Source: Chloroflexota bacterium (GTDB lineage Bacteria; Chloroflexota; Limnocylindria; Limnocylindrales; CSP1-4). From it: a stretch of DNA of 27,044 bases. Made by a program: the position numbers and the translations under genes. This document shows positions 4,255-12,968 of the stretch, piece by piece. The notes below the pieces were generated by a model that saw only the letters and a program-made list of their open reading frames with translations, searched no databases and had not been told where the DNA came from. The stretch lies in contig JAOUEG010000001.1 of the NCBI GenBank assembly GCA_029858845.1, positions 1 through 27,044 of the forward strand, read 5' to 3'. How positions within the stretch are numbered: position 1 is the stretch's first letter; each line of letters opens with the position of its first letter.

Positions 4255-4309
4255 GCGAGATCTCGCAGTCTGGTGGCCGGCGGTCCACTGGGACTTACCG
4301 AGATCTCGC
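4255..4309. repeat. Two copies of the palindrome CGAGATCTCG, 43 bp apart
   Basis: GCGAGATCTCGC at 4255-4266 and CGAGATCTCGC at 4299-4309, in the divergent intergenic region. Confidence 0.85.
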
Positions 4310-4368
4310 CGAGGCCCAGCGGACAGGCGGCCATGCGGCAGATTCGGGCCCGGAACGGCGTGCCGGTG

Positions 4369-4377
4369 TGCTAGGCT
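4369..4377 (+). promoter_or_regulatory. Extended -10 promoter (TG-n-TAGGCT) for the riboswitch-btu transcript
   Basis: TGcTAGGCT immediately upstream of the riboswitch aptamer. Confidence 0.6.
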
Positions 4378-4381
4378 CGAC

Positions 4382-4517
4382 GTCGATCCTCGTCGACGCC
4401 GCGTGGTCGCGAAGCCGGTGCGAATCCGGCACAGTCCCGCTACGGTGACCGCCCCTGCCGGGGCGGAAGTCCGGTCGCCGGCCTCACGGTGCATGCTCGA
4501 ACCTTCGAGAGAAAGGT
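4382..4517 (+). promoter_or_regulatory. Cobalamin (B12) riboswitch, short form
   Basis: Core GCGAAGCCGGTGCGAATCCGGCACAGTCCCGCTACGGTGA (4409-4448) matches the cobalamin pattern GGAAnnnGGTGnnAnTCCnnnCnGnCCCnnnACnGTnA. It is followed by a GCCCC/GGGGC hairpin, a B12-box-like AAGTCCGGTCGCC and a P13-like hairpin ACCTT-cgagaga-AAGGT. It lies upstream of a BtuF/C/D-like operon. Confidence 0.88.
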
Positions 4518-4527
4518 AGGCAGGACC

Positions 4528-4545
4528 GTGCGCATCTCCACCTGA
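4528..4545 (+). other. Possible 5-codon uORF (GTG CGC ATC TCC ACC TGA; MRIST) inside the riboswitch platform
   Basis: Preceded by SD-like AAGGTAGG (4513-4520) at 7 nt. The stop codon abuts the terminator-like stem. May be incidental. Confidence 0.25.
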
Positions 4546-4581
4546 ACCCCTCCTTCGATCGGTTCGAAGCGAGGGGTCTTT
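4546..4581 (+). terminator. Terminator-like/attenuator hairpin downstream of the B12 aptamer
   Basis: ACCCCTC-CTTCGA (4546-4558), loop TCGGT, TCGAAG-C-GAGGGGT (4564-4577) gives 13 bp with one bulge, followed by CTTT (short U-tract). Confidence 0.55.
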
Positions 4582-4630
4582 GCGATCGCGATCGCGGCCC
4601 CTCCGGTGCACCACTCCCGGAGGTCCCGAG

Positions 4631-5653
4631 TTGCCTGCCCATCCTCGCCGGCGTGTCGCCGGCCTCGCCCCCGCCCTGGTCGCCTCGATCGCCCTGCTGC
4701 TGGCGGGTTGCACGAGCGCGGGCGTCACCCCCACGCTGACGGCGCCGCCCCTCAGCCCAGCTCCCGTGGCTGATCCCACGACGCCGGCCAGCCCGTCGCC
4801 CGCGATCTTCGCCACCGTGACCGACGACGAGGGGACGATCGTCGAGATCCCCATGGAACCGCAGCGGATCGTGTCGCTCACCCCGGCGACGACCGAGATC
4901 CTGTTCGCGCTCGGCGCCGGCCCGCGGGTCATCGCCACGACCGACTTCGATGACTACCCTCCCGAGGCGGTCGAGCTTCCGGACGTCGCCAGCTACCAGG
5001 CGGTCGACGTCGAGAAGATCGTGGGCCTCGATGCCGATCTCGTCATCGCCGGAGGGAATTTCTTCAACGACCCGAATGCCATCGCCCAACTGCGAGGACT
5101 CGGGATCCCGGTCGTCGTCACGTATGCTCCGGACACCGAGGGCGTGCTGGCGGACATCGAGTTGGTCGGGAGGTCGACCGGCCTGACCGGGCCCGCCAGC
5201 AGCCTGGTCGCGTCGATGCGGCAGGGATTCGACCAGGTCGGCGCGGCCGTCGCAGGACTGCCGCGCCCGCGCGTGTTCTACGAACTCGACGCCACATCCG
5301 ACATCTACACGGCGGCGGACGATTCGTTCATCGCGGAGATGATCGTCCTCGCCGGCGGTGAGCCCATCACGACGGGCAGCCCGACCGACTTCGCGATCTC
5401 GCTGGAGAAGCTCATCACGGCCGATCCGGAGGTGATCGTCCTTGGTGATGCTGCCTATGGCGTCACGGCTGACGCCGTTGCCGGACGCGCCGGGTGGGGG
5501 GTCATGACGGCGGTCCGGGACGGGGCCATTCGCCCGGCGAACGACGTGATCGTCACGCGGCCCGGTCCGCGCCTCGTGGAAGGGCTGCGTGAACTGGCAC
5601 TGGCCATCCATCCGGGTGCAGCGGTCCCGACCCCGGAGGTCGCGGCGCCCTGA
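4631..5653 (+). CDS. btuF: Cobalamin ABC transporter substrate-binding lipoprotein (BtuF-like), 340 aa
   Basis: SD GGAGGT 4619-4624, TTG start 4631, lipobox LLAG-C. Helical-backbone SBP motifs PQRIVSLTPATTEILFALG, DYPPEA, SLEKLITADPEVI, RPGPRL. Substrate inferred from the riboswitch. Confidence 0.85.
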   Translation: MPAHPRRRVAGLAPALVASIALLLAGCTSAGVTPTLTAPPLSPAPVADPTTPASPSPAIFATVTDDEGTIVEIPMEPQRIVSLTPATTEILFALGAGPRVIATTDFDDYPPEAVELPDVASYQAVDVEKIVGLDADLVIAGGNFFNDPNAIAQLRGLGIPVVVTYAPDTEGVLADIELVGRSTGLTGPASSLVASMRQGFDQVGAAVAGLPRPRVFYELDATSDIYTAADDSFIAEMIVLAGGEPITTGSPTDFAISLEKLITADPEVIVLGDAAYGVTADAVAGRAGWGVMTAVRDGAIRPANDVIVTRPGPRLVEGLRELALAIHPGAAVPTPEVAAP

Positions 5654-5668: not shown

Positions 5669-6754
5669 ATGGCGACGCGTCAGGAGGTCGTGGCCGTCGA
5701 CAGCCCGCGTGTGTGGCGGGCGGCGGCGGGCCTGCGCAGCCGCCCGGTCGTGATCGCTTTGCTCGGCATCGGCGCCCTCGTCGTGGCCCTCGTGCTGGGG
5801 GTCGGCATGGGATCCGTGGCGATCGTGCCCGGGGAGACCATCGGCATCCTGGGTCATCGGTTGCTCGGTTTGGACATCGCGGGCAGATGGAGCGAGGCGA
5901 GCGAGACGATCGTCATGGATCTGCGGCTCCCGCGCGTCCTCACGGCGATGATCGTGGGTACGGGCCTGGCCGTGGCCGGCGCCACGTTCCAGGGCCTGCT
6001 GCGCAATCCCCTTGCGGATCCCTACGTCCTGGGTACCGCCTCGGGCGCGGCGCTCGGCGCGGCGATCGCGGTCCTGATCCCGGTGCGGATCGTGGTGCTG
6101 GAATTCGGGCTCCTCCACGGGTTCGCGTTCATCGGGGCCCTGGCCGCCGTCTACACGGTGTATCGGCTCGCGCATTCCGGCGGGCTCGCGCCCCTGACCA
6201 GTCTGTTGCTGACCGGCTACGCAGTCGGGTCGCTGCTGGCGGCCGGTCTCGCGATGGCGATGTACCTGTCCGGAGCCGCGCTCAACCAGATCTTCTCGTA
6301 CCTGCTCGGCGGGTTCGACGGCTCGTCGTGGGTCCGGCTCGCCGGCGCCGCGCCGCTCATCATCCTGGGCGGCACGGCGATCATGCTGCGAGCGCGTTCC
6401 ATCAACGGGATGCTGCTTGGCGAGGAGACGGCCGGCCACCTGGGCATCGACGTCCCGCGTGAACGGGCGATCCTGCTGGCCCTCGCCTCGCTGGTCACCG
6501 CGGCCGCCGTCGCTGTCAGCGGCCTGATCGGTTTCGTCGGGCTGGTCGTCCCGCACGTCGTCCGCATGCTAGTCGGCCCTTCGGCGCGGCTGGTCCTCCC
6601 CCTCTCCGCCATCGGAGGGGCCGCCCTGCTGACGTTCGCCGACCTGGCGGCGCGGATGCTCGGGGAGATCCCGGTCGGGGTGGTCACGGCCGTGATCGGT
6701 GCGCCGTTCTTCCTGGTCCTGCTGCGCCGCGTCCGCGCCGGGTATGAGCTGTGA
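5669..6754 (+). CDS. btuC: FecCD/BtuC-family ABC permease, 361 aa
   Basis: Motifs RLPRVL, QGLLRNPLADPYVLGTASGA, SGLIGFVGLVVPH, IPVGVVTA. Confidence 0.88.
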   Translation: MATRQEVVAVDSPRVWRAAAGLRSRPVVIALLGIGALVVALVLGVGMGSVAIVPGETIGILGHRLLGLDIAGRWSEASETIVMDLRLPRVLTAMIVGTGLAVAGATFQGLLRNPLADPYVLGTASGAALGAAIAVLIPVRIVVLEFGLLHGFAFIGALAAVYTVYRLAHSGGLAPLTSLLLTGYAVGSLLAAGLAMAMYLSGAALNQIFSYLLGGFDGSSWVRLAGAAPLIILGGTAIMLRARSINGMLLGEETAGHLGIDVPRERAILLALASLVTAAAVAVSGLIGFVGLVVPHVVRMLVGPSARLVLPLSAIGGAALLTFADLAARMLGEIPVGVVTAVIGAPFFLVLLRRVRAGYEL

Positions 6755-7503
6755 GCAGACCCGCGATCCGGCTTGCCGGGGTCGACGTCCGCTATCGCGA
6801 GCGGGCCGCCCTGCGCAACGTGGACCTCGAGATCGCCACCGGCGAGCGCGTCGCACTCATCGGCGGCAACGGAGCCGGCAAGTCCACCCTGCTGCGGGTC
6901 GCCGTCGGGACGCTCGGACCGTCCGCCGGCGGCGTGGAGCTGCTGGGGCAGTCGATCGACGTGCTCGATCGGATGGCCGTCGCGCGTCGGGTCGCCGTCG
7001 TGCCACAGGCTGCGACCCTTCCCTTTGCCACGCGCGTCGAGGAGGTCGTGGGACTGGGCCGGATCCCGCACGAGGACCCGTTCCGCGGCGCCCGCGCGTC
7101 GGACCGCGCCGCGATCGCGGCGGCGATCGAGCGCGTGGGCGTGGGCCATCTGCTCGGACGTGACGCTCGAGAGCTGTCGCTCGGCGAGCGGCAGCTCGTC
7201 CTGATCGCGATGGCGGTCGCGCAGGCGGCCCCGATCCTGATCTTGGACGAGCCGACGGTCCACCTGGACCTGCGGCACCAGGTGGGGACGATGGACCTGT
7301 TGGTGGATCTCAACGAGCGTGACGGGACCACCGTCGTCGCCGTGCTCCACGACCTGACCCTCGCCGCGCACTTCTTCCCCAGGCTCGTGCTGCTCGACCA
7401 CGGCTGCGTCGTGGCGGACGGGAACCCCTCGGAGGTGCTGACGCCGGATCGGATCCGCGACGTCTTCGGGGTGGACCCGGCACTGGTTCGGCTCGGCGCC
7501 TGA
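6751..7503 (+). CDS. btuD: Cobalamin/iron-chelate ABC transporter ATPase (BtuD/FecE-like), 250 aa
   Basis: Walker A GGNGAGKST, signature LSLGE, Walker B ILDEPT..LD, H-loop VLHD. GTG overlaps the btuC stop. Confidence 0.88.
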   Translation: MSRPAIRLAGVDVRYRERAALRNVDLEIATGERVALIGGNGAGKSTLLRVAVGTLGPSAGGVELLGQSIDVLDRMAVARRVAVVPQAATLPFATRVEEVVGLGRIPHEDPFRGARASDRAAIAAAIERVGVGHLLGRDARELSLGERQLVLIAMAVAQAAPILILDEPTVHLDLRHQVGTMDLLVDLNERDGTTVVAVLHDLTLAAHFFPRLVLLDHGCVVADGNPSEVLTPDRIRDVFGVDPALVRLGA

Positions 7504-7523: not shown

Positions 7524-8234
7524 GTGACGCGACGTCGATCGAACGCGCCGGGACGCGTCGGTCCCGACCGCCGTCGGTCCCTCTCGATCCTGGCCGTGCT
7601 CGTCGCCCTGGTCGCGGTGGGCTGCGGCGGCTCGCCCGACTCGTCAGGATCCCCATCGCCCGCCGTCCCGACGGCCACGGGCGAGGCAACGGATCCGGCG
7701 ACGGGCCCGGCTACCACGGGACCCGGTCCCACAGCCGCTCCGGTCACGCCGACGCCGACCGCGCTCGCAAGCGAGGCACCGGCGACCGACGCGCCGACCT
7801 CGAGCGCACCAGGTGGGTCAGCCGCGGTCTGTGCCGGAAACGACGACAACCGCGACTTCTATGCGGCGGTCGCGGACGCGGTCGCGTGGCCCGTCTACTG
7901 TCCGGTGCTGGGCGAAGGATGGTTCGTCGACGCTGGTCAGTACCGTCTAGCCGGAGGCGGGTGGATGGAGATCGCCTATCAGGGCCCGCGGGGATTGCGA
8001 CTGGAGCTGCGCGAAGGCGCGGTCTGTGCGGTCGGCGATTGCGTCCTGAACGGGGCCGACGGCGGGGGAGCTGCCTTCGGCGACATGGCCGGCACGCTGC
8101 TGCTCCTCGACGAGGGTCGGCTGGCGATCGTCGTGGACGCCGGGGCGAATCCGAGCTGGACGATCGTCGCCAGCGGATTGGATCAGGCGGCGTTCGAGAG
8201 CATCGCCGCGGAGCTGGTGCGCGTCGGCGACTGA
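7524..8234 (+). CDS. Putative lipoprotein with Pro/Thr/Ala-rich linker and an unknown C-terminal domain, 236 aa
   Basis: RRR followed by hydrophobic LSILAVLVALVAVG-C. Low-complexity PTA linker. Globular domain with 4 Cys (AVADAVAWPVYCPVLGEGW...). Confidence 0.75.
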   Translation: MTRRRSNAPGRVGPDRRRSLSILAVLVALVAVGCGGSPDSSGSPSPAVPTATGEATDPATGPATTGPGPTAAPVTPTPTALASEAPATDAPTSSAPGGSAAVCAGNDDNRDFYAAVADAVAWPVYCPVLGEGWFVDAGQYRLAGGGWMEIAYQGPRGLRLELREGAVCAVGDCVLNGADGGGAAFGDMAGTLLLLDEGRLAIVVDAGANPSWTIVASGLDQAAFESIAAELVRVGD

Positions 8235-8247
8235 CCGCTCCGAAGAT

Positions 8248-8271
8248 GCCGGGCGTGGGCCATGTCCCGGC
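8248..8271 (+). terminator. GC hairpin after the lipoprotein gene
   Basis: GCCGGG (8248-8253) pairs with CCCGGC (8266-8271), with inner CGTGG/CCATG pairing. Confidence 0.3.
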
Positions 8272-8284
8272 GGCCGCGGTCGGG

Positions 8285-8290
8285 CATGAT
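8285..8290 (+). promoter_or_regulatory. Candidate -10 (CATGAT) for a leaderless aminotransferase
   Basis: 6 nt before ATG 8297. No SD. Confidence 0.4.
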
Positions 8291-8296
8291 GGTGGC

Positions 8297-9421
8297 ATGC
8301 GGATCGCCGATTTCGCCCTGGAGCGGTACTTCGCCCGCTGGGAGTTCAGCGTCCGACACATGCTGTGCGCCTCGGATGTCCAGGGGATGTCCATGAGTGA
8401 CGTCCTAAGGCTGGCCGACGACGAGGCACGGGGCCTGTGGGACGACCTGACCCTCGGCTACACGGAGTCGACCGGCCACCCTCTGCTCCGACGGGAGATC
8501 GCGCGGCTCTATTCGCACATCGAAGCGGACGATGTCCTGGTCTTCGCCGGTGCCGAGGAGGCCATCTTCTGCATCGCCAACGTGCTTCTGGCGCCCGGAG
8601 ATCATGCCATCGTGACCTGGCCTGGGTACCAGAGCCTGTACGAGGTGGCCCGGGCGACCGGCGCGGAGGTGGCGCTCCACGAACTGCGCGAGGAATCCGG
8701 TTGGGCCGTGGATCTGGGACTCCTTCGTCGGCAGGTCACACCGGCCACGCGACTCATCGTCGTCAACGCCCCCCACAACCCGACCGGGATGCTGCCGGAC
8801 CGAACCACGTTCGACGGGCTGGCCGAGATCGCCGCAGAGGCAGGTGCGCATCTCCTGGTCGACGAGGTCTACCGCTACCTGGAGTACGACCCATCGGGTC
8901 GCCTGCCGGCCGGTGCGGACGCGCTCGCGAACGGTATCTCCCTGGGCGTGATGTCCAAGTCGTTCGCGATGGCCGGCCTGCGGATCGGATGGCTCGCCAC
9001 CCGCGATCGTGATCTTCTGGCGCGCTGTGCCGCGTTCAAGGACTACACCAGCATCTGCTCGTCAGCGCCCTCCGAGATCCTGGCGCTCATCGGCTTGCGT
9101 GCGCGCGACGCGGTCCTCGATCGCTCACGGGCGATCGTGGCGGCAAACCTGGAGCGCCTCGACGCGTTCTTCGACGGCTGGGCAGACCGATTCGCGTGGA
9201 CCCGGCCCCAGGCAGGACCGGTCGGGTTCGCCAGGCTGACCGTGCCGGGAGTGTCGATCGACGACTGGGCCGCGGGCCTGGTCGAGACCGAAGGCGTCCT
9301 CCTGCTGCCGGGTTCGCTGTTCGGCTACGGTGGGAACCACTTCCGGCTCGGTTTCGGTCGGACCGATCTACCGGCCGCACTCGATCGGATGGAAGCGTAC
9401 GCCGGCGCGACGCTACGCTGA
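8297..9421 (+). CDS. PLP-dependent aminotransferase class I/II, 374 aa
   Basis: LGYTESTGHPLLR, GAEEA, NAPHNPTG, DEVY, PLP lysine in SKSFAMAGLRIGW, FRLGFGR. Confidence 0.9.
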   Translation: MRIADFALERYFARWEFSVRHMLCASDVQGMSMSDVLRLADDEARGLWDDLTLGYTESTGHPLLRREIARLYSHIEADDVLVFAGAEEAIFCIANVLLAPGDHAIVTWPGYQSLYEVARATGAEVALHELREESGWAVDLGLLRRQVTPATRLIVVNAPHNPTGMLPDRTTFDGLAEIAAEAGAHLLVDEVYRYLEYDPSGRLPAGADALANGISLGVMSKSFAMAGLRIGWLATRDRDLLARCAAFKDYTSICSSAPSEILALIGLRARDAVLDRSRAIVAANLERLDAFFDGWADRFAWTRPQAGPVGFARLTVPGVSIDDWAAGLVETEGVLLLPGSLFGYGGNHFRLGFGRTDLPAALDRMEAYAGATLR

Positions 9422-9584: not shown

Positions 9585-12500
9585 ATGCCCTCGACGCTGA
9601 TCGCCACCCTGCTCGTCAGCCTCCGCCGGACGCGTGCCGCCTGGCCGATCGCCCTCGCCGCCGGCCTCACCTGCATGCTGGCCTCCACCCTGTTGGCGGC
9701 GGGCCCGATCTACGCCAGCGCCGTGTCCGTGGCGGGCCTTCAGCGGGTCCTCTCCGATTCTCCGGTGGACGCCGCGAACATCGAAGTGTCGCTGCGGACG
9801 GAGGCCGATCAGGCCGATTCCGTGGACGGCGTCGTGTCGTCCGAGCTCGAGCAGGTCCTCGCGGGCATCGGGGGCCCACTGGCGCGCTTCGGTCGTTCGG
9901 ATTCGTTCGATCTCCCGACGGCGCTGCCGGGACCGATCCCCGACCTCGTCGAGCTCGGCTTCGCCGAGGGGCTGTCCGAGCACGCGACGCTTCTGGACGG
10001 AGCGTGGCCCCGGGACGAGGATCGGGGCAGTGGGTCGACGGAGCCCGTGCCGGTCGCGGTCGGCGAGCACGTGGCCATGCCGCTCGGACTCGCCGTTGGC
10101 GACGTCCTGCAGCTGGACAGCCGCATCCACCAGGCGTTCTCGGTCCCGGTCCGGATCGCCGGAGTGTTCCGGATCGACGATCCGGCGGACGCATACTGGT
10201 GGGGCGAGTCACAGGTTCTCGACGGGCTCGTCACCAGCCAGGACTTCGCGACCCACGGTCCCTTCTTCACCACCCGCGACCAGTTGCTGGCCCGGACGAC
10301 CGTGGGCCGGCTGCGACTGATCTGGCGCGCCTTCCCGGACCCGGGGAACGTGACGATCGACGACATCGCCGGCCTCGAGGAGCGGATCGGACAACTTGAC
10401 GGCCGGATCGAGGCCTCGACGTCCGGGATCCCCGTCACGGTGTCGACGACGCTCCCGGAGATCCTCGCCAGGGCCGAGCGCTCGCTCCTGGTGAGCCGCA
10501 CCGGCGTCCTGCTCCTGACGGTGCAACTCGCAGTCCTGGCTGCCTACGCCGTCCTGCTCAGTGCGGCGCTCCTTGTCGAGCATCGCCGTGTCGACACGGC
10601 GATGCTCCGGTCGCGGGGTGCCGGCCCGGTCCGGATCGCCGGCCTGACCCTGGTCGAGGCGGTGCTCCTGACGGTGCCGGCTGCGGTGATCGCCCCATGG
10701 GTCGCCGTCATCGCCTTGACGGCCTTCAACGTCGTGGGACCCCTCGCCGCCATCGAGCTGCCGATCGAGCCGGTGGTTTCGCCGGAGGCCTACCTGGCCG
10801 CTGCGGCGGGGGCGGCAGGCTGCCTGATCGCCCTGGTGCTCCCGGCCCTCCCGACGAGAAGGTCGTTCGCTGCCGTCCAGCGCGGTGTCTCACGGGCCTC
10901 CACGACGCCCACGAGCCAGCGGATCGGGCTCGACCTGGCGCTGCTGGCCGTGGCCGGCCTCGGCCTATGGCAGCTCCGCCTCTACGGCGCTCCGCTCACC
11001 CGAACCGTGCAGGGAGCGGTGGGGATCGACCCGCTCCTTGTCGCGGCGCCGGCGATCGGCCTGCTGGCGGGAGCAGTCGTCGCGCTCCGGCTGCTGCCGC
11101 TGGTCGCCGGCCTGGTCGAGCGGGCGACGAGCCGCGGCCGGGGCCTCGTCTCGGCGCTGGGCGCTCGCCAGCTCGCCCGCCGGCCGCTCCGCTACACGCG
11201 CGCCGCGCTGCTGCTGATGCTCGCCATGTCGATGGGGGTCTTCGCCGTGTCATACGGTTGGACGTGGTCCGCATCGCAACACGATCAGGCCGGCTATCAG
11301 GTCGGAGCGGACCTCCGCGTCGAGCCTGGGCTGCGCTCGGCGGCGCTTCCGCGCTGGGCGCTGGACAGCGCCTACGGATCGGTCCCCGGGGTGGTCGTGC
11401 ACATGCCGGTCGACCGGGCCCCGGTGGCGGCCTCCCGCTCGGAGAGTGGTGAGATCGTCGCGCTCGACGCCGCCACCGCGCCATCGATCGTCGTCTTCCG
11501 CCCGGACCTCGCCGATGCTGCGCTCCCTGACCTGCTGGCGCCACTCGCCGATGCCCGGCCGGGTCCGGAGCTGGTACGCCTCGCCGGGAAGCCGAGCAGA
11601 TTGCGCGTCGACGTCTCCACCGCTCTCGACGAGGTCGGCGAGATCGAGTTCGATCCGGTTGCCGACGCGTTCGTCGATACCCCTGCGGACCCGACCCGCA
11701 TCTCGGCGTGGCGCGGCCTCCGGGCCTCGGTCGTGGTGCGCGACGCCTCGGGGATGCTCTATCGCTTCGCGGGCGAGGCAGACATGATCGGCGGCGGCAG
11801 GCACGAGCTCGTCGTGGGGCTCGGGGATCCGGGCGACACGTCCGCCGCCCTCGCCTACCCGCTGGACCTGCTCGCCATCGAGCTCGCCATCAGCCTGCCG
11901 CCGAACCACCAGGTATCCGAGGGCGCCATTGTCGTGCTGGGACTCCAGGCCGCCCCCGGAGACGATCCATGGCAGCCTGTCCCCCTCGACCTGGGCGATG
12001 GCTGGCGACTGTCGTCCTCGGTCTACGGCCAGCCGCACGACCTCGTCGAGCCGGTTCTGCCGGCTGGCGGGTTGACGGCCACCGTGGGCCGACGGGGCCT
12101 CAGCTCCCTGGTCGGCGTCGATGCGTATGGACGGGCAACCGTCCTGACGTTCGCGCCGGCCGTCCTCACCGCCATCGGCGAGGCGACGATCCCGGTCGTT
12201 GCCAGCACGCCGTTCCTCGACGCGAGCGCCCGCAGCGTCGGCGATGAACTCATGATCGACCTCGAGGGCCGCCGGCACATGATCGAGGTCGTCGGGGAGG
12301 TGCTCGCGTTCCCGACCGTCGAGGCCGACGAGCCGGTCCTCGTGATGGACTTCCCGACGTTGGCCCTCGTTCGCTTCGAGGGCACGGACAGCGTGGATCC
12401 GGCGAACGAGTGGTGGCTCGACCTCGGGCCGGGAGAGAGCGCGTCCGTCTCGGCCCGCCTCGAGGCCGCTCCGTTCCAGAGCCGATCCGTGGTCAGCCTG

Positions 12501-12968
12501 GAGGGCCGGGAGCAGGCGCTCGCGACCGATCCGGTGGCGCTCGGGATCATCGGGGCCCTGAGCATCGGATTCGTCGCCGCCGCGCTGTTCGCCGTCGTCG
12601 GTTTCGTGGTGAGTGCGGCCGTCTCTGCGCGGGAGCGCGTGTCGGAGTTCGCCCTGCTGCGCGCCCTCGGCCTGTCTCCCGGGCAGCTGTCCGGCTGGCT
12701 GTCGCTGGAGAACGTGGTCCTTGCCGCGGTCAGCCTCGTGGCGGGCACGGCACTGGGCCTGCTGATCGCCTGGGTCGTCCTCCCGTTCGTCACGGTCACC
12801 CAGGAGGCCCGGATCCCGTATCCGCCGGTCATCCTGGAGGTGCCCTGGGCGACCATCGTTGTCCTCGAGGTCGTGAGTATCATCGCCCTCGGGGCGACGG
12901 TCATCGTCCTTGCCTGGCTGCTGCGTCGGATCGGCCTGGCAGCCGTCCTGCGGACCGGGGAGGACTGA
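9585..12968 (+). CDS. Giant FtsX/MacB-type (type VII) ABC permease 1, 1127 aa
   Basis: N-terminal TM, large extracytoplasmic region, then FtsX motif EHRRVDTAMLRSRGAG. A second TM block and large loop lead to RERVSEFALLRALGLS. Confidence 0.88.
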   Translation: MPSTLIATLLVSLRRTRAAWPIALAAGLTCMLASTLLAAGPIYASAVSVAGLQRVLSDSPVDAANIEVSLRTEADQADSVDGVVSSELEQVLAGIGGPLARFGRSDSFDLPTALPGPIPDLVELGFAEGLSEHATLLDGAWPRDEDRGSGSTEPVPVAVGEHVAMPLGLAVGDVLQLDSRIHQAFSVPVRIAGVFRIDDPADAYWWGESQVLDGLVTSQDFATHGPFFTTRDQLLARTTVGRLRLIWRAFPDPGNVTIDDIAGLEERIGQLDGRIEASTSGIPVTVSTTLPEILARAERSLLVSRTGVLLLTVQLAVLAAYAVLLSAALLVEHRRVDTAMLRSRGAGPVRIAGLTLVEAVLLTVPAAVIAPWVAVIALTAFNVVGPLAAIELPIEPVVSPEAYLAAAAGAAGCLIALVLPALPTRRSFAAVQRGVSRASTTPTSQRIGLDLALLAVAGLGLWQLRLYGAPLTRTVQGAVGIDPLLVAAPAIGLLAGAVVALRLLPLVAGLVERATSRGRGLVSALGARQLARRPLRYTRAALLLMLAMSMGVFAVSYGWTWSASQHDQAGYQVGADLRVEPGLRSAALPRWALDSAYGSVPGVVVHMPVDRAPVAASRSESGEIVALDAATAPSIVVFRPDLADAALPDLLAPLADARPGPELVRLAGKPSRLRVDVSTALDEVGEIEFDPVADAFVDTPADPTRISAWRGLRASVVVRDASGMLYRFAGEADMIGGGRHELVVGLGDPGDTSAALAYPLDLLAIELAISLPPNHQVSEGAIVVLGLQAAPGDDPWQPVPLDLGDGWRLSSSVYGQPHDLVEPVLPAGGLTATVGRRGLSSLVGVDAYGRATVLTFAPAVLTAIGEATIPVVASTPFLDASARSVGDELMIDLEGRRHMIEVVGEVLAFPTVEADEPVLVMDFPTLALVRFEGTDSVDPANEWWLDLGPGESASVSARLEAAPFQSRSVVSLEGREQALATDPVALGIIGALSIGFVAAALFAVVGFVVSAAVSARERVSEFALLRALGLSPGQLSGWLSLENVVLAAVSLVAGTALGLLIAWVVLPFVTVTQEARIPYPPVILEVPWATIVVLEVVSIIALGATVIVLAWLLRRIGLAAVLRTGED

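Follow-up and report, generated by a model that had tools for sequence, protein, structure and literature searches.

A five-codon upstream reading frame as a possible intermediary between a cobalamin riboswitch and a distant, hairpin-masked ribosome binding site in Chloroflexota

The locus

Within a stretch of 27,044 nucleotides (nt) from an uncultured Chloroflexota bacterium of the order Limnocylindrales (assembly GCA_029858845.1, contig JAOUEG010000001.1, positions 1 to 27,044 of the forward strand), hereafter the window, a cobalamin (vitamin B12, below B12) riboswitch aptamer lies upstream of what its family matches would make a btuFCD-like ATP-binding cassette (ABC) operon for uptake of the B12 type. 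The contig comes from a metagenome-assembled genome that is 65% complete. Between the aptamer and the first gene there is a leader whose hairpins an earlier note on this DNA had drawn as a domino of RNA alone; absent from that drawing is a predicted five-codon upstream open reading frame (uORF; ORF below for any open reading frame), and it is this short frame that now seems central. The reading favoured here, whose probability as a whole model is put at roughly 0.55, is that a cobalamin OFF riboswitch gates the uORF and that the ribosome terminating on it triggers a relay of hairpins on the way to the transporter gene.

4384-4523, forward strand: adenosylcobalamin riboswitch aptamer including P13 (Rfam RF01482, 58.6 bits against a gathering score of 50, model positions 1-149)
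4397-4491, forward strand: P1 helix enclosing the aptamer core, 4397-4408 with 4480-4491 (Rfam alignment)
4415-4429, forward strand: P5/L5, with loop UGCGAAU at 4419-4425 (Rfam alignment)
4494-4522, forward strand: P13, outer stem UGC 4494-4496 with GCA 4520-4522, inner stem ACCUU 4501-4505 with AAGGU 4513-4517
4506-4512, forward strand: L13 loop, CGAGAGA, nearly invariant in 90 leaders
4631-5653, forward strand: BtuF-like lipoprotein, an ABC substrate-binding protein, start TTG 4631, lipobox LLAGC (Pfam Peripla_BP_2, 1.4e-27)
5669-6754, forward strand: FecCD-type permease of the same operon (Pfam FecCD, 8e-80)
6751-7503, forward strand: ABC ATPase of the same operon (Pfam ABC_tran, 2.8e-29)

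That a B12 riboswitch with a P13 is present, as the earlier note had held, is borne out by the Rfam models: RF01482 exceeds its gathering score with P13 aligned, and RF00174 provides a second match at 4387-4500 (32.6 bits against a gathering threshold of 31.5). Homologues in five other genera also pass the RF01482 threshold (Rfam clan CL00101), and P13, which is aligned to that model in the window and in five other genera, is nearly invariant across 34 species of the genus. The first gene begins at TTG 4631, a start column conserved in 30 homologues, and has its own Shine-Dalgarno (SD) sequence, GGAGG 4619-4623, 7 nt upstream. A signal peptide is visible in the translation of this BtuF-like protein, whose score with the NCBIfam BtuF model NF002894 is 94.5 bits, under the cut-off of 234.

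Within the genus 33 of 36 genomes carry the leader, and within the family 182 of 201 do (G140, G196 and G250 serve for the tally only, none of their sequence being used). Ninety leaders were collected, 34 from the genus and 56 from other genera, and a second, independent set of loci, found by way of the permease gene, has 75. One alignment (A1) consists of the 34 congeneric species and a family alignment of 61 leaders from many genera; significance was judged by 500 shuffles, and helix energies are nearest-neighbour values. The same binding-protein gene follows the leader in all 29 full-length congeneric loci tested, and nucleotide identity of the leader, at 81–93%, is to be set against 45–80% amino-acid identity for its protein.

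A short reading frame behind P13

4510-4520, forward strand: SD sequence of the uORF, AGAAAGG(U)AGG, formed by the 3′ half of L13 together with the P13 3′ strand; GUG 4528 follows at 7 nt
4528-4545, forward strand: predicted five-codon uORF, GUG CGC AUC UCC ACC UGA (M-R-I-S-T-stop)

Is it the transporter gene on which the riboswitch acts directly, or something nearer to hand? The 3′ end of 16S rRNA, GGCUGGAUCACCUCCUUUCU (...GGAUCACCUCCUUUCU), which occurs once per genome in 16 congeneric genomes, is complementary to AGAAAGG(U)AGG 4510-4520 and thereby marks it as a strong SD sequence; in the alignments it is invariant. With this SD in L13 and the P13 3′ strand, the ribosome binding site (RBS) of the uORF would appear to lie within the expression platform of the riboswitch itself. 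A start codon, ATG or GTG, is found 9–14 nt past the P13 3′ strand in every one of the 90 leaders. In 70 of them, from more than 40 genera, the frame so opened has exactly five codons, in 13 the frame from this start continues into the lipoprotein ORF, in four there is a 25-codon ORF (behind a paralogous riboswitch in genus g32), and the remaining three have other architectures. The permease-derived set gives a similar picture, five codons in 65 of 75 leaders, 44 of these being new.

The frame is preserved as a frame. Among the 61 aligned leaders the start is GTG in 39 and ATG in 22, and the stop is TGA in 49, TAG in 11 and TAA in one, with TGG in none. There is not a single gap inside the uORF in these leaders, to be compared with 118 gaps in the ten columns before it and 337 in the ten columns after it. 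The spelling varies synonymously, arginine being CGA, CGT or CGC and glycine GGC, GGA, GGG or GGT, and the leader peptide has the pattern M-R-(S/P)-T-G, with no repeated regulatory codon. Pairing of the linker 4532-4545 with the P5 5′ strand (CACCGGCU:AGCCGGUG), seen by eye in about half of the species, was considered and is explained as uORF codons (ACC GGC).

A sister family (f2) is without the uORF, and in it the lipoprotein ORF starts 5–6 nt after P13 (CCCUCGAGGCAAGGGAGGAAGCAUG). As the start behind P13 there opens the transporter gene, the uORF start has as its homologue a start codon truly under riboswitch control. The f2 leaders (L172–L181, from genomes of about 1.1 Mb) have CGAGGCA as L13 and the P13 3′ strand AAGGGAGGA as SD, and they have neither of the hairpins, H1 and H2, described below. 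On a rough estimate it is highly probable that the uORF RBS, rather than the btuF-like gene, is the direct target of the riboswitch.

Genus g32 has the paralogous riboswitch before a different gene (L040, L044, L045 and L081), and the 25-codon uORF of this paralogue extends across H1 to a stop 5 nt short of the following GTG. Both other forms occur in g32 too, the five-codon one in L041 and the fused one in L043.

Conserved hairpins between the uORF and the main start

4546-4577, forward strand: hairpin H1 (regions 1 and 2), 13-bp stem 4546-4558/4564-4577 with bulged C4570, -22.0 kcal/mol, followed by CUUU
4582-4595, forward strand: hairpin h3, GCGAU/AUCGC, -5.4 kcal/mol, which would cap helix a′:a2 (2:3)
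4600-4623, forward strand: hairpin H2 (regions 3 and 4), CCUCCGG 4600-4606 with CCGGAGG 4617-4623, -12.3 kcal/mol, masking the SD GGAGG 4619-4623
4571-4603, forward strand: candidate relay helix 2:3 (a′:a2), GAGGGGUC 4571-4578 with GGCCCCUC 4596-4603, -20.2 kcal/mol with h3

The 5′ arm of H1, ACCCCUCCUUCGA (also quoted as ACCCCUCCUU), mimics the anti-SD sequence of the 16S 3′ tail, and its 3′ arm, UCGAAG-C-GAGGGGU, is SD-like. A sequence check with computed energies found every pairing that the earlier note had listed to exist where the note had placed it. The note had sorted these pairings into an OFF set (the P13 inner stem, H1 and H2) and an ON set of their competitors, and had looked to homologous leaders for covariation, which the OFF set has (none of 500 shuffles reaches its score) and the ON set does not (266 of 500). 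With h3 counted in the OFF set as well, 92.4% of its cells pair among the 34 leaders of the genus, nine pairs have changes on both sides compared with 5.2 in shuffles (1 in 500), and the covariation score is 0.085 against 0.064 in shuffles. Double changes are seen in these species in 4 of the 13 pairs of H1, in 3 of the 4 counted pairs of h3 and in 2 of the 7 pairs of H2. For H2, 88% of cells pair, and the hairpin proposed in the note as burying the SD is both real and covarying. Across the 61 family leaders compensatory changes affect 7 of 12 H1 pairs (0 of 500 shuffles), mostly in its upper half, and the basal CCCCUC:GAGGGG part is sequence-conserved. In one species (L025) the SD, GAGAGGG, is matched by an anti-SD, CCCGUCUC. 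RNAalifold recovers a long P13 hairpin and H1 only. H1, h3 and H2 are real conserved structures.

A nested OFF topology, in which region 1 pairs with the SD around 2:3, was also tried; it is possible, but is 5.8 kcal/mol weaker on average. In one congener (L027) the anti-SD segment CGACCCCU is tandemly duplicated after H1, and masking of its H1 arm is without computed effect on the SD.

A possible role for a ribosome terminating at the first hairpin

An initiating ribosome at GUG 4528 reaches, by established footprints, to about +15, which is just short of H1, and once the stop codon is in the A site the ribosome extends over some 9–10 nt of the H1 5′ arm, leaving 3–4 bp. In 61 of 70 leaders H1 follows the uORF stop codon without a gap (47 leaders) or after 1 nt (14 leaders) and, as it comes directly after the stop codon, a terminating ribosome would cover its 5′ arm; the footprint reaches H1, not H2. 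Genus g36 (L075, L076 and L078) is without H1, and there the arm adjoining the stop forms a long-range hairpin with the main SD some 50–80 nt away, each of the three species having a different but matching pair of arms. In genus g38 the main start is apparently 4–6 nt after H1, so that GAGGGG would be a working SD there. The common principle, to judge from these comparisons, seems to be that the stop codon abuts an arm that masks an SD, with one extra step in the genus of the window. A start after H1 is in frame in all five g38 loci and may be genuine in that genus. The TTG at 4580-4582 of the window (3 nt after H1, in the btuF frame, adding 17 residues) was considered as a start or as a second uORF and is probably unused; among the 34 congeners nine have an in-frame start 2–8 nt after H1, which is about chance level.

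The steps by which such an arrangement might work are as follows. With B12 bound, a kissing loop between L5 and L13 would, as the class of riboswitch suggests, lock P13 and leave the uORF untranslated, and both H1 at 4546-4577 and H2 at 4600-4623 would fold, with the btuF SD buried. With B12 absent the uORF would be translated, and a ribosome having UGA 4543-4545 in its A site, and so about 9–10 nt of the H1 5′ arm beneath it, would melt H1. The freed H1 3′ arm (4571-4578) could then pair with the anti-SD at 4596-4603, stacked on h3, in which case the SD GGAGG 4619-4623 would stay open and a second ribosome could load. That the L5-L13 kissing loop is cobalamin-dependent and governs ribosome loading is known for the env8 hydroxocobalamin (HyCbl) class (Polaski et al. 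2016, PMC5028336).

Folding gives this scheme partial support. In 29 of 34 species the stretch of linker that best pairs with the H1 3′ arm (a′) shares at least 4 nt with the one that best pairs with the SD, and from this shared target it follows that the 1:2 / 2:3 / 3:4 relay architecture exists. A relay of alternative hairpins is likely real; this part of the earlier note's proposal stands, and invasion of H1 by the P13 strand, which the note had made its input, does not. When the 9 nt after the stop are masked, the mean cost of opening the SD falls from 8.8 to 5.0 kcal/mol, with a drop in 32 of 34 species. The median barrier from the masked-state fold, which has H2 formed, back to the unconstrained fold is 8.5 kcal/mol and, as the start state retains H2, this barrier is no measure of the lifetime of an SD-open state.

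A number of observations weigh against the reading just set out. Under the footprint mask the minimum-energy fold flips to an SD-open form in none of the 34 species, H2 staying in place, and about 5 kcal/mol is still needed to open the SD. With H2 persisting in the masked equilibrium folds the relay would have to be kinetic or partial and, on such models, an effect of this kind is plausible. In five species there is little or no overlap of targets and in two no masking effect. Helix 2:3, 93% of whose cells pair in the 34 species, shows no covariation in them, and its two strands might match for no other reason than that H1 and H2 are each an anti-SD:SD hairpin. No covariation between L5 and L13 is detectable in the leaders; L5 has some 20 sequences (UGNRANY) and L13 is constant, so that no Watson-Crick covariation is visible for the kissing loop. 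The presence of fused, five-codon and 25-codon forms within g32 means that the stop codon is evolutionarily labile. Lastly there is a competing helix of 6 bp: CACGGU 4485-4490 in the P1 3′ strand is complementary to ACCGUG 4525-4530 (spacer and uORF start), and their pairing, which would extend P13 to a 46-nt hairpin excluding P1, could sequester the uORF start once P1 is open, a poor fit to OFF logic. This helix pairs in 97% of cells within the genus, is chosen by RNAalifold and, on secondary-structure energy alone, belongs to a fold about 5.5 kcal/mol better than that with P1; outside the genus the two segments of one sequence match no better than segments taken from different species (-7.3 vs -6.9 kcal/mol, p = 0.12). 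Passage of the signal through helix 2:3 is, on a rough estimate, rated a little short of an even chance.

The persistence of H2 in equilibrium models, even with H1 masked, would also suit the idea that the uORF is a remnant of the original N-terminus of the transporter with no role in any relay. H1 and H2 would then be constitutive and set a low level of translation, and control by B12 would be exerted via mRNA stability or be largely lost for btuF in this genus. The homology of the uORF start to the main start of the sister family fits such an origin, as do the fused, five-codon and 25-codon forms side by side in g32. However, a remnant would not be expected to keep five codons, three spellings of the stop, an interior free of insertions and deletions and a gap to H1 of 0–1 nt in more than 40 genera, nor a leader more conserved than the protein downstream, and this origin without function is considered distinctly improbable.

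Within the reading in which the riboswitch gates the uORF, a more specific and tentative suggestion, given somewhat less than an even chance, is that the minimal uORF of five codons is a ribosome-driven mechanical actuator between the riboswitch and a distant RBS. Its length, 18 nt, leaves H1 outside the initiating footprint, so that initiation would not be blocked, yet H1 would be fully melted with the ribosome at the stop. In 33 of 70 leaders a C comes after a UGA stop, and in 39 of 61 the peptide ends in glycine or proline. Both UGA-C and a C-terminal glycine or proline are linked to slow termination in Escherichia coli, and it is speculative that they prolong the dwell of the ribosome on H1. 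If they do, such features would hold the ribosome in place while the a′:a2 relay exposes the btuF SD. On this suggestion the design is kept across more than 40 Limnocylindrales genera, in one step in g38 and g36 and in two steps in the genus of the window.

RNA alone, and the question of a terminator

Could the RNA do all this by itself? In the domino of the earlier note the P13 3′ strand (AAGGUAGG) pairs, without B12, with the H1 5′ arm and the SD opens; the hairpin CUCGA:UCGAG forms in place of P13, the anti-SD is taken up by the released 3′ arm of H1, and H1 doubles as a terminator. All these helices can be drawn, each overlapping its competitor, and their sequences are strongly conserved, with 94.5% of ON-set cells pairing in the 34 species. 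The energies of the ON set are, however, inferior. The inner stem of P13 has -3.2 kcal/mol and the hairpin CUCGA 4496-4500:UCGAG 4505-4509 has -5.5 kcal/mol, and the invading helix 0:1, AAGG(U)AGG 4513-4520 with CCUCCUU 4549-4555, has only -3.6 kcal/mol to set against -22.0 for H1. In total the OFF set comes to -42.9 and the ON set to -29.3 kcal/mol, weaker by 13.6. The ON set is conserved only, with no covariation in the 34 congeners (266 of 500 shuffles, as given above) or in the family alignment (401 of 500). Moreover, helix 0:1 has losses without compensation, of G4515:C4553 in nine and of A4518:U4551 in six of the 34 species, and its second half is broken in 20–24 of 60 family leaders; the CUCGA arm drifts to CUCUA, CUCA or CACCA in other genera, UCGAG remaining fixed.

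The earlier note had looked to constrained folding of the two states for support, and this was not forthcoming. The 34 leaders were folded from P13 to the start codon, once freely and once with P13 imposed and L13 kept unpaired, and opening of the SD costs the same in both cases (7.37 kcal/mol with P13 forced, 7.35 with it free), the differences for individual species scattering around zero. Since this cost is indifferent to the locking of P13, a path from P13 to the SD by RNA alone is not supported. Why then the conservation? It is accounted for by the roles of the segments as SD, anti-SD and P13/L13, the purine run of P13 pairing with CCUCCUU because the former is an SD and the latter, in the H1 arm, imitates the 16S tail. 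The RNA-only domino is thus regarded as very unlikely, and the interpretation of the earlier note is, as a whole, partly supported.

Its designation of H1 as a terminator fares no better. No terminator-like site is called at H1, whose tail is CUUUGCGA. Of what defines an intrinsic terminator the G+C-rich stem-loop is there and a conserved U tract is not, the 8 nt after H1 having a mean of 2.8 U and at least five U in only 3 of 70 leaders. As a canonical terminator H1 was rejected for this lack of a U tract, and related genera, in which it bears the real SD or lies within the coding sequence, give the terminator reading no support either. Metatranscriptome contigs cover 4349-4611 at a depth of 2–4, too thin for 5′ or 3′ ends or for regulation, and one identical contig spans 4426-4611, through H1, which argues weakly for transcription of the leader and against H1 as an absolute stop.

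These data also bear on a different role for H1, in a translation-controlled attenuation. The riboswitch would, as in the favoured reading, gate the uORF, and the ribosome on it would prevent H1 from forming or Rho from loading; otherwise H1 or Rho would end transcription before btuF, H2 being a constitutive damper. H1 is very stable, it abuts the stop codon and a mildly U-rich stretch follows it, and Rho termination is a frequent partner of translational riboswitches (PMC11260477, PMC12810186). Nor does any metatranscriptome contig bridge the leader and the coding region, at what is a very low depth. The count of U after H1 and the lack of a called site tell against such attenuation, as does the contig from an RNA library that continues through H1 to 4611. 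H1 lying within an ORF or carrying a working SD in several genera is hard to reconcile with a terminator, and the common target of a′ and SD in 29 of 34 species would be left unexplained. Attenuation of this type is accordingly held to be unlikely.

Relation to known systems

In Mycobacterium tuberculosis ppe2 has a B12 riboswitch, and the downstream gene needs translation of a uORF, uPPE2 (Kipkorir et al., NAR 2024, PMC11260477); the M. tuberculosis Mbox likewise controls a small uORF (PMC12810186). What is proposed here resembles ppe2 in having a B12 translational OFF switch on a short uORF, with downstream expression dependent on that uORF. In ppe2 the ribosome terminates and reinitiates at an AUGA overlap, and the ORF that follows has no SD. 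In the window, by contrast, 85 nt separate UGA 4545 from TTG 4631 and the main gene has an SD of its own, masked by a hairpin; the uORF has a fixed five codons abutting a hairpin, and the phylum is Chloroflexota. Given the spacing of 85 nt and the gene's own masked SD, the coupling would be by RNA unfolding rather than by reinitiation.

Might a ribosome nevertheless remain on the RNA after termination, as 70S or 30S, move the 85 nt and reinitiate at TTG 4631? Reinitiation has been demonstrated for the ppe2 B12 switch (PMC11260477) and scanning models are discussed in PMC12548453. However, the way to be covered goes through three hairpins and such coupling fades within tens of nt (PMC12548453); furthermore there is no NUGA overlap of uORF stop and main start, and the main start owns a strong, conserved SD. 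Reinitiation at this distance is deemed very unlikely.

The relation to env8 HyCbl (PMC5028336) is of another sort. There too the loop and 3′ strand of P13 carry an SD, with a start a few nt downstream, and f2 has this canonical arrangement of the env8 type for the transporter gene itself. Unlike in env8, the P13-adjacent start of the window opens a five-codon ORF, the real gene being 85 nt further on, behind two more hairpins. For the second part of the path, precedents of translational coupling by RNA unfolding are E. coli rpmI-rplT, at +52 nt, and MS2 coat-lysis (reviewed in PMC12548453). As in these, a ribosome on the upstream ORF is proposed to block an inhibitory structure so that a second ribosome binds a distant RBS; unlike in them, the upstream frame is a leader ORF under riboswitch control and the effect would come about via helix 2:3, the RBS hairpin not being melted directly. 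With attenuators of the trp type the proposed device shares four segments, mutually exclusive hairpins and a decision made by where a ribosome stands on a short leader ORF. It differs from them in that hairpin 3:4 masks an SD, with no terminator, U tract or regulatory codons, and in that its input would be riboswitch-controlled initiation, not tRNA-dependent stalling.

The usual account of riboswitches has them act on the RBS or the terminator of the controlled gene, and a riboswitch gating a tiny uORF, with the ribosome relaying the signal, was shown only recently, in M. tuberculosis. What this locus adds is a comparative series in another phylum, of more than 110 leaders, having five codons and a hairpin 0–1 nt after the stop. 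The series holds intermediates, from a P13 acting directly on the RBS in the sister family, through fused ORFs and a relay with one hairpin, to the two-hairpin relay of the window, and it makes the travel of a signal from aptamer to distant RBS directly testable. It also counsels caution in reading long expression platforms as devices of RNA alone, for complementarity of purine and pyrimidine runs can mirror roles as SD and anti-SD.

The surroundings

Further downstream, the ORF 7524-8234 has no family match. At 7886-9421 there is a class I/II aminotransferase, none of whose top NCBIfam matches reaches its cut-off (CobD matches only weakly), and at 9585-12968 there is a gene for a large FtsX-like permease protein, likewise downstream of the transporter. 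Upstream of the riboswitch, at 4255-4309, the palindrome CGAGATCTCG occurs twice, 43 bp apart.

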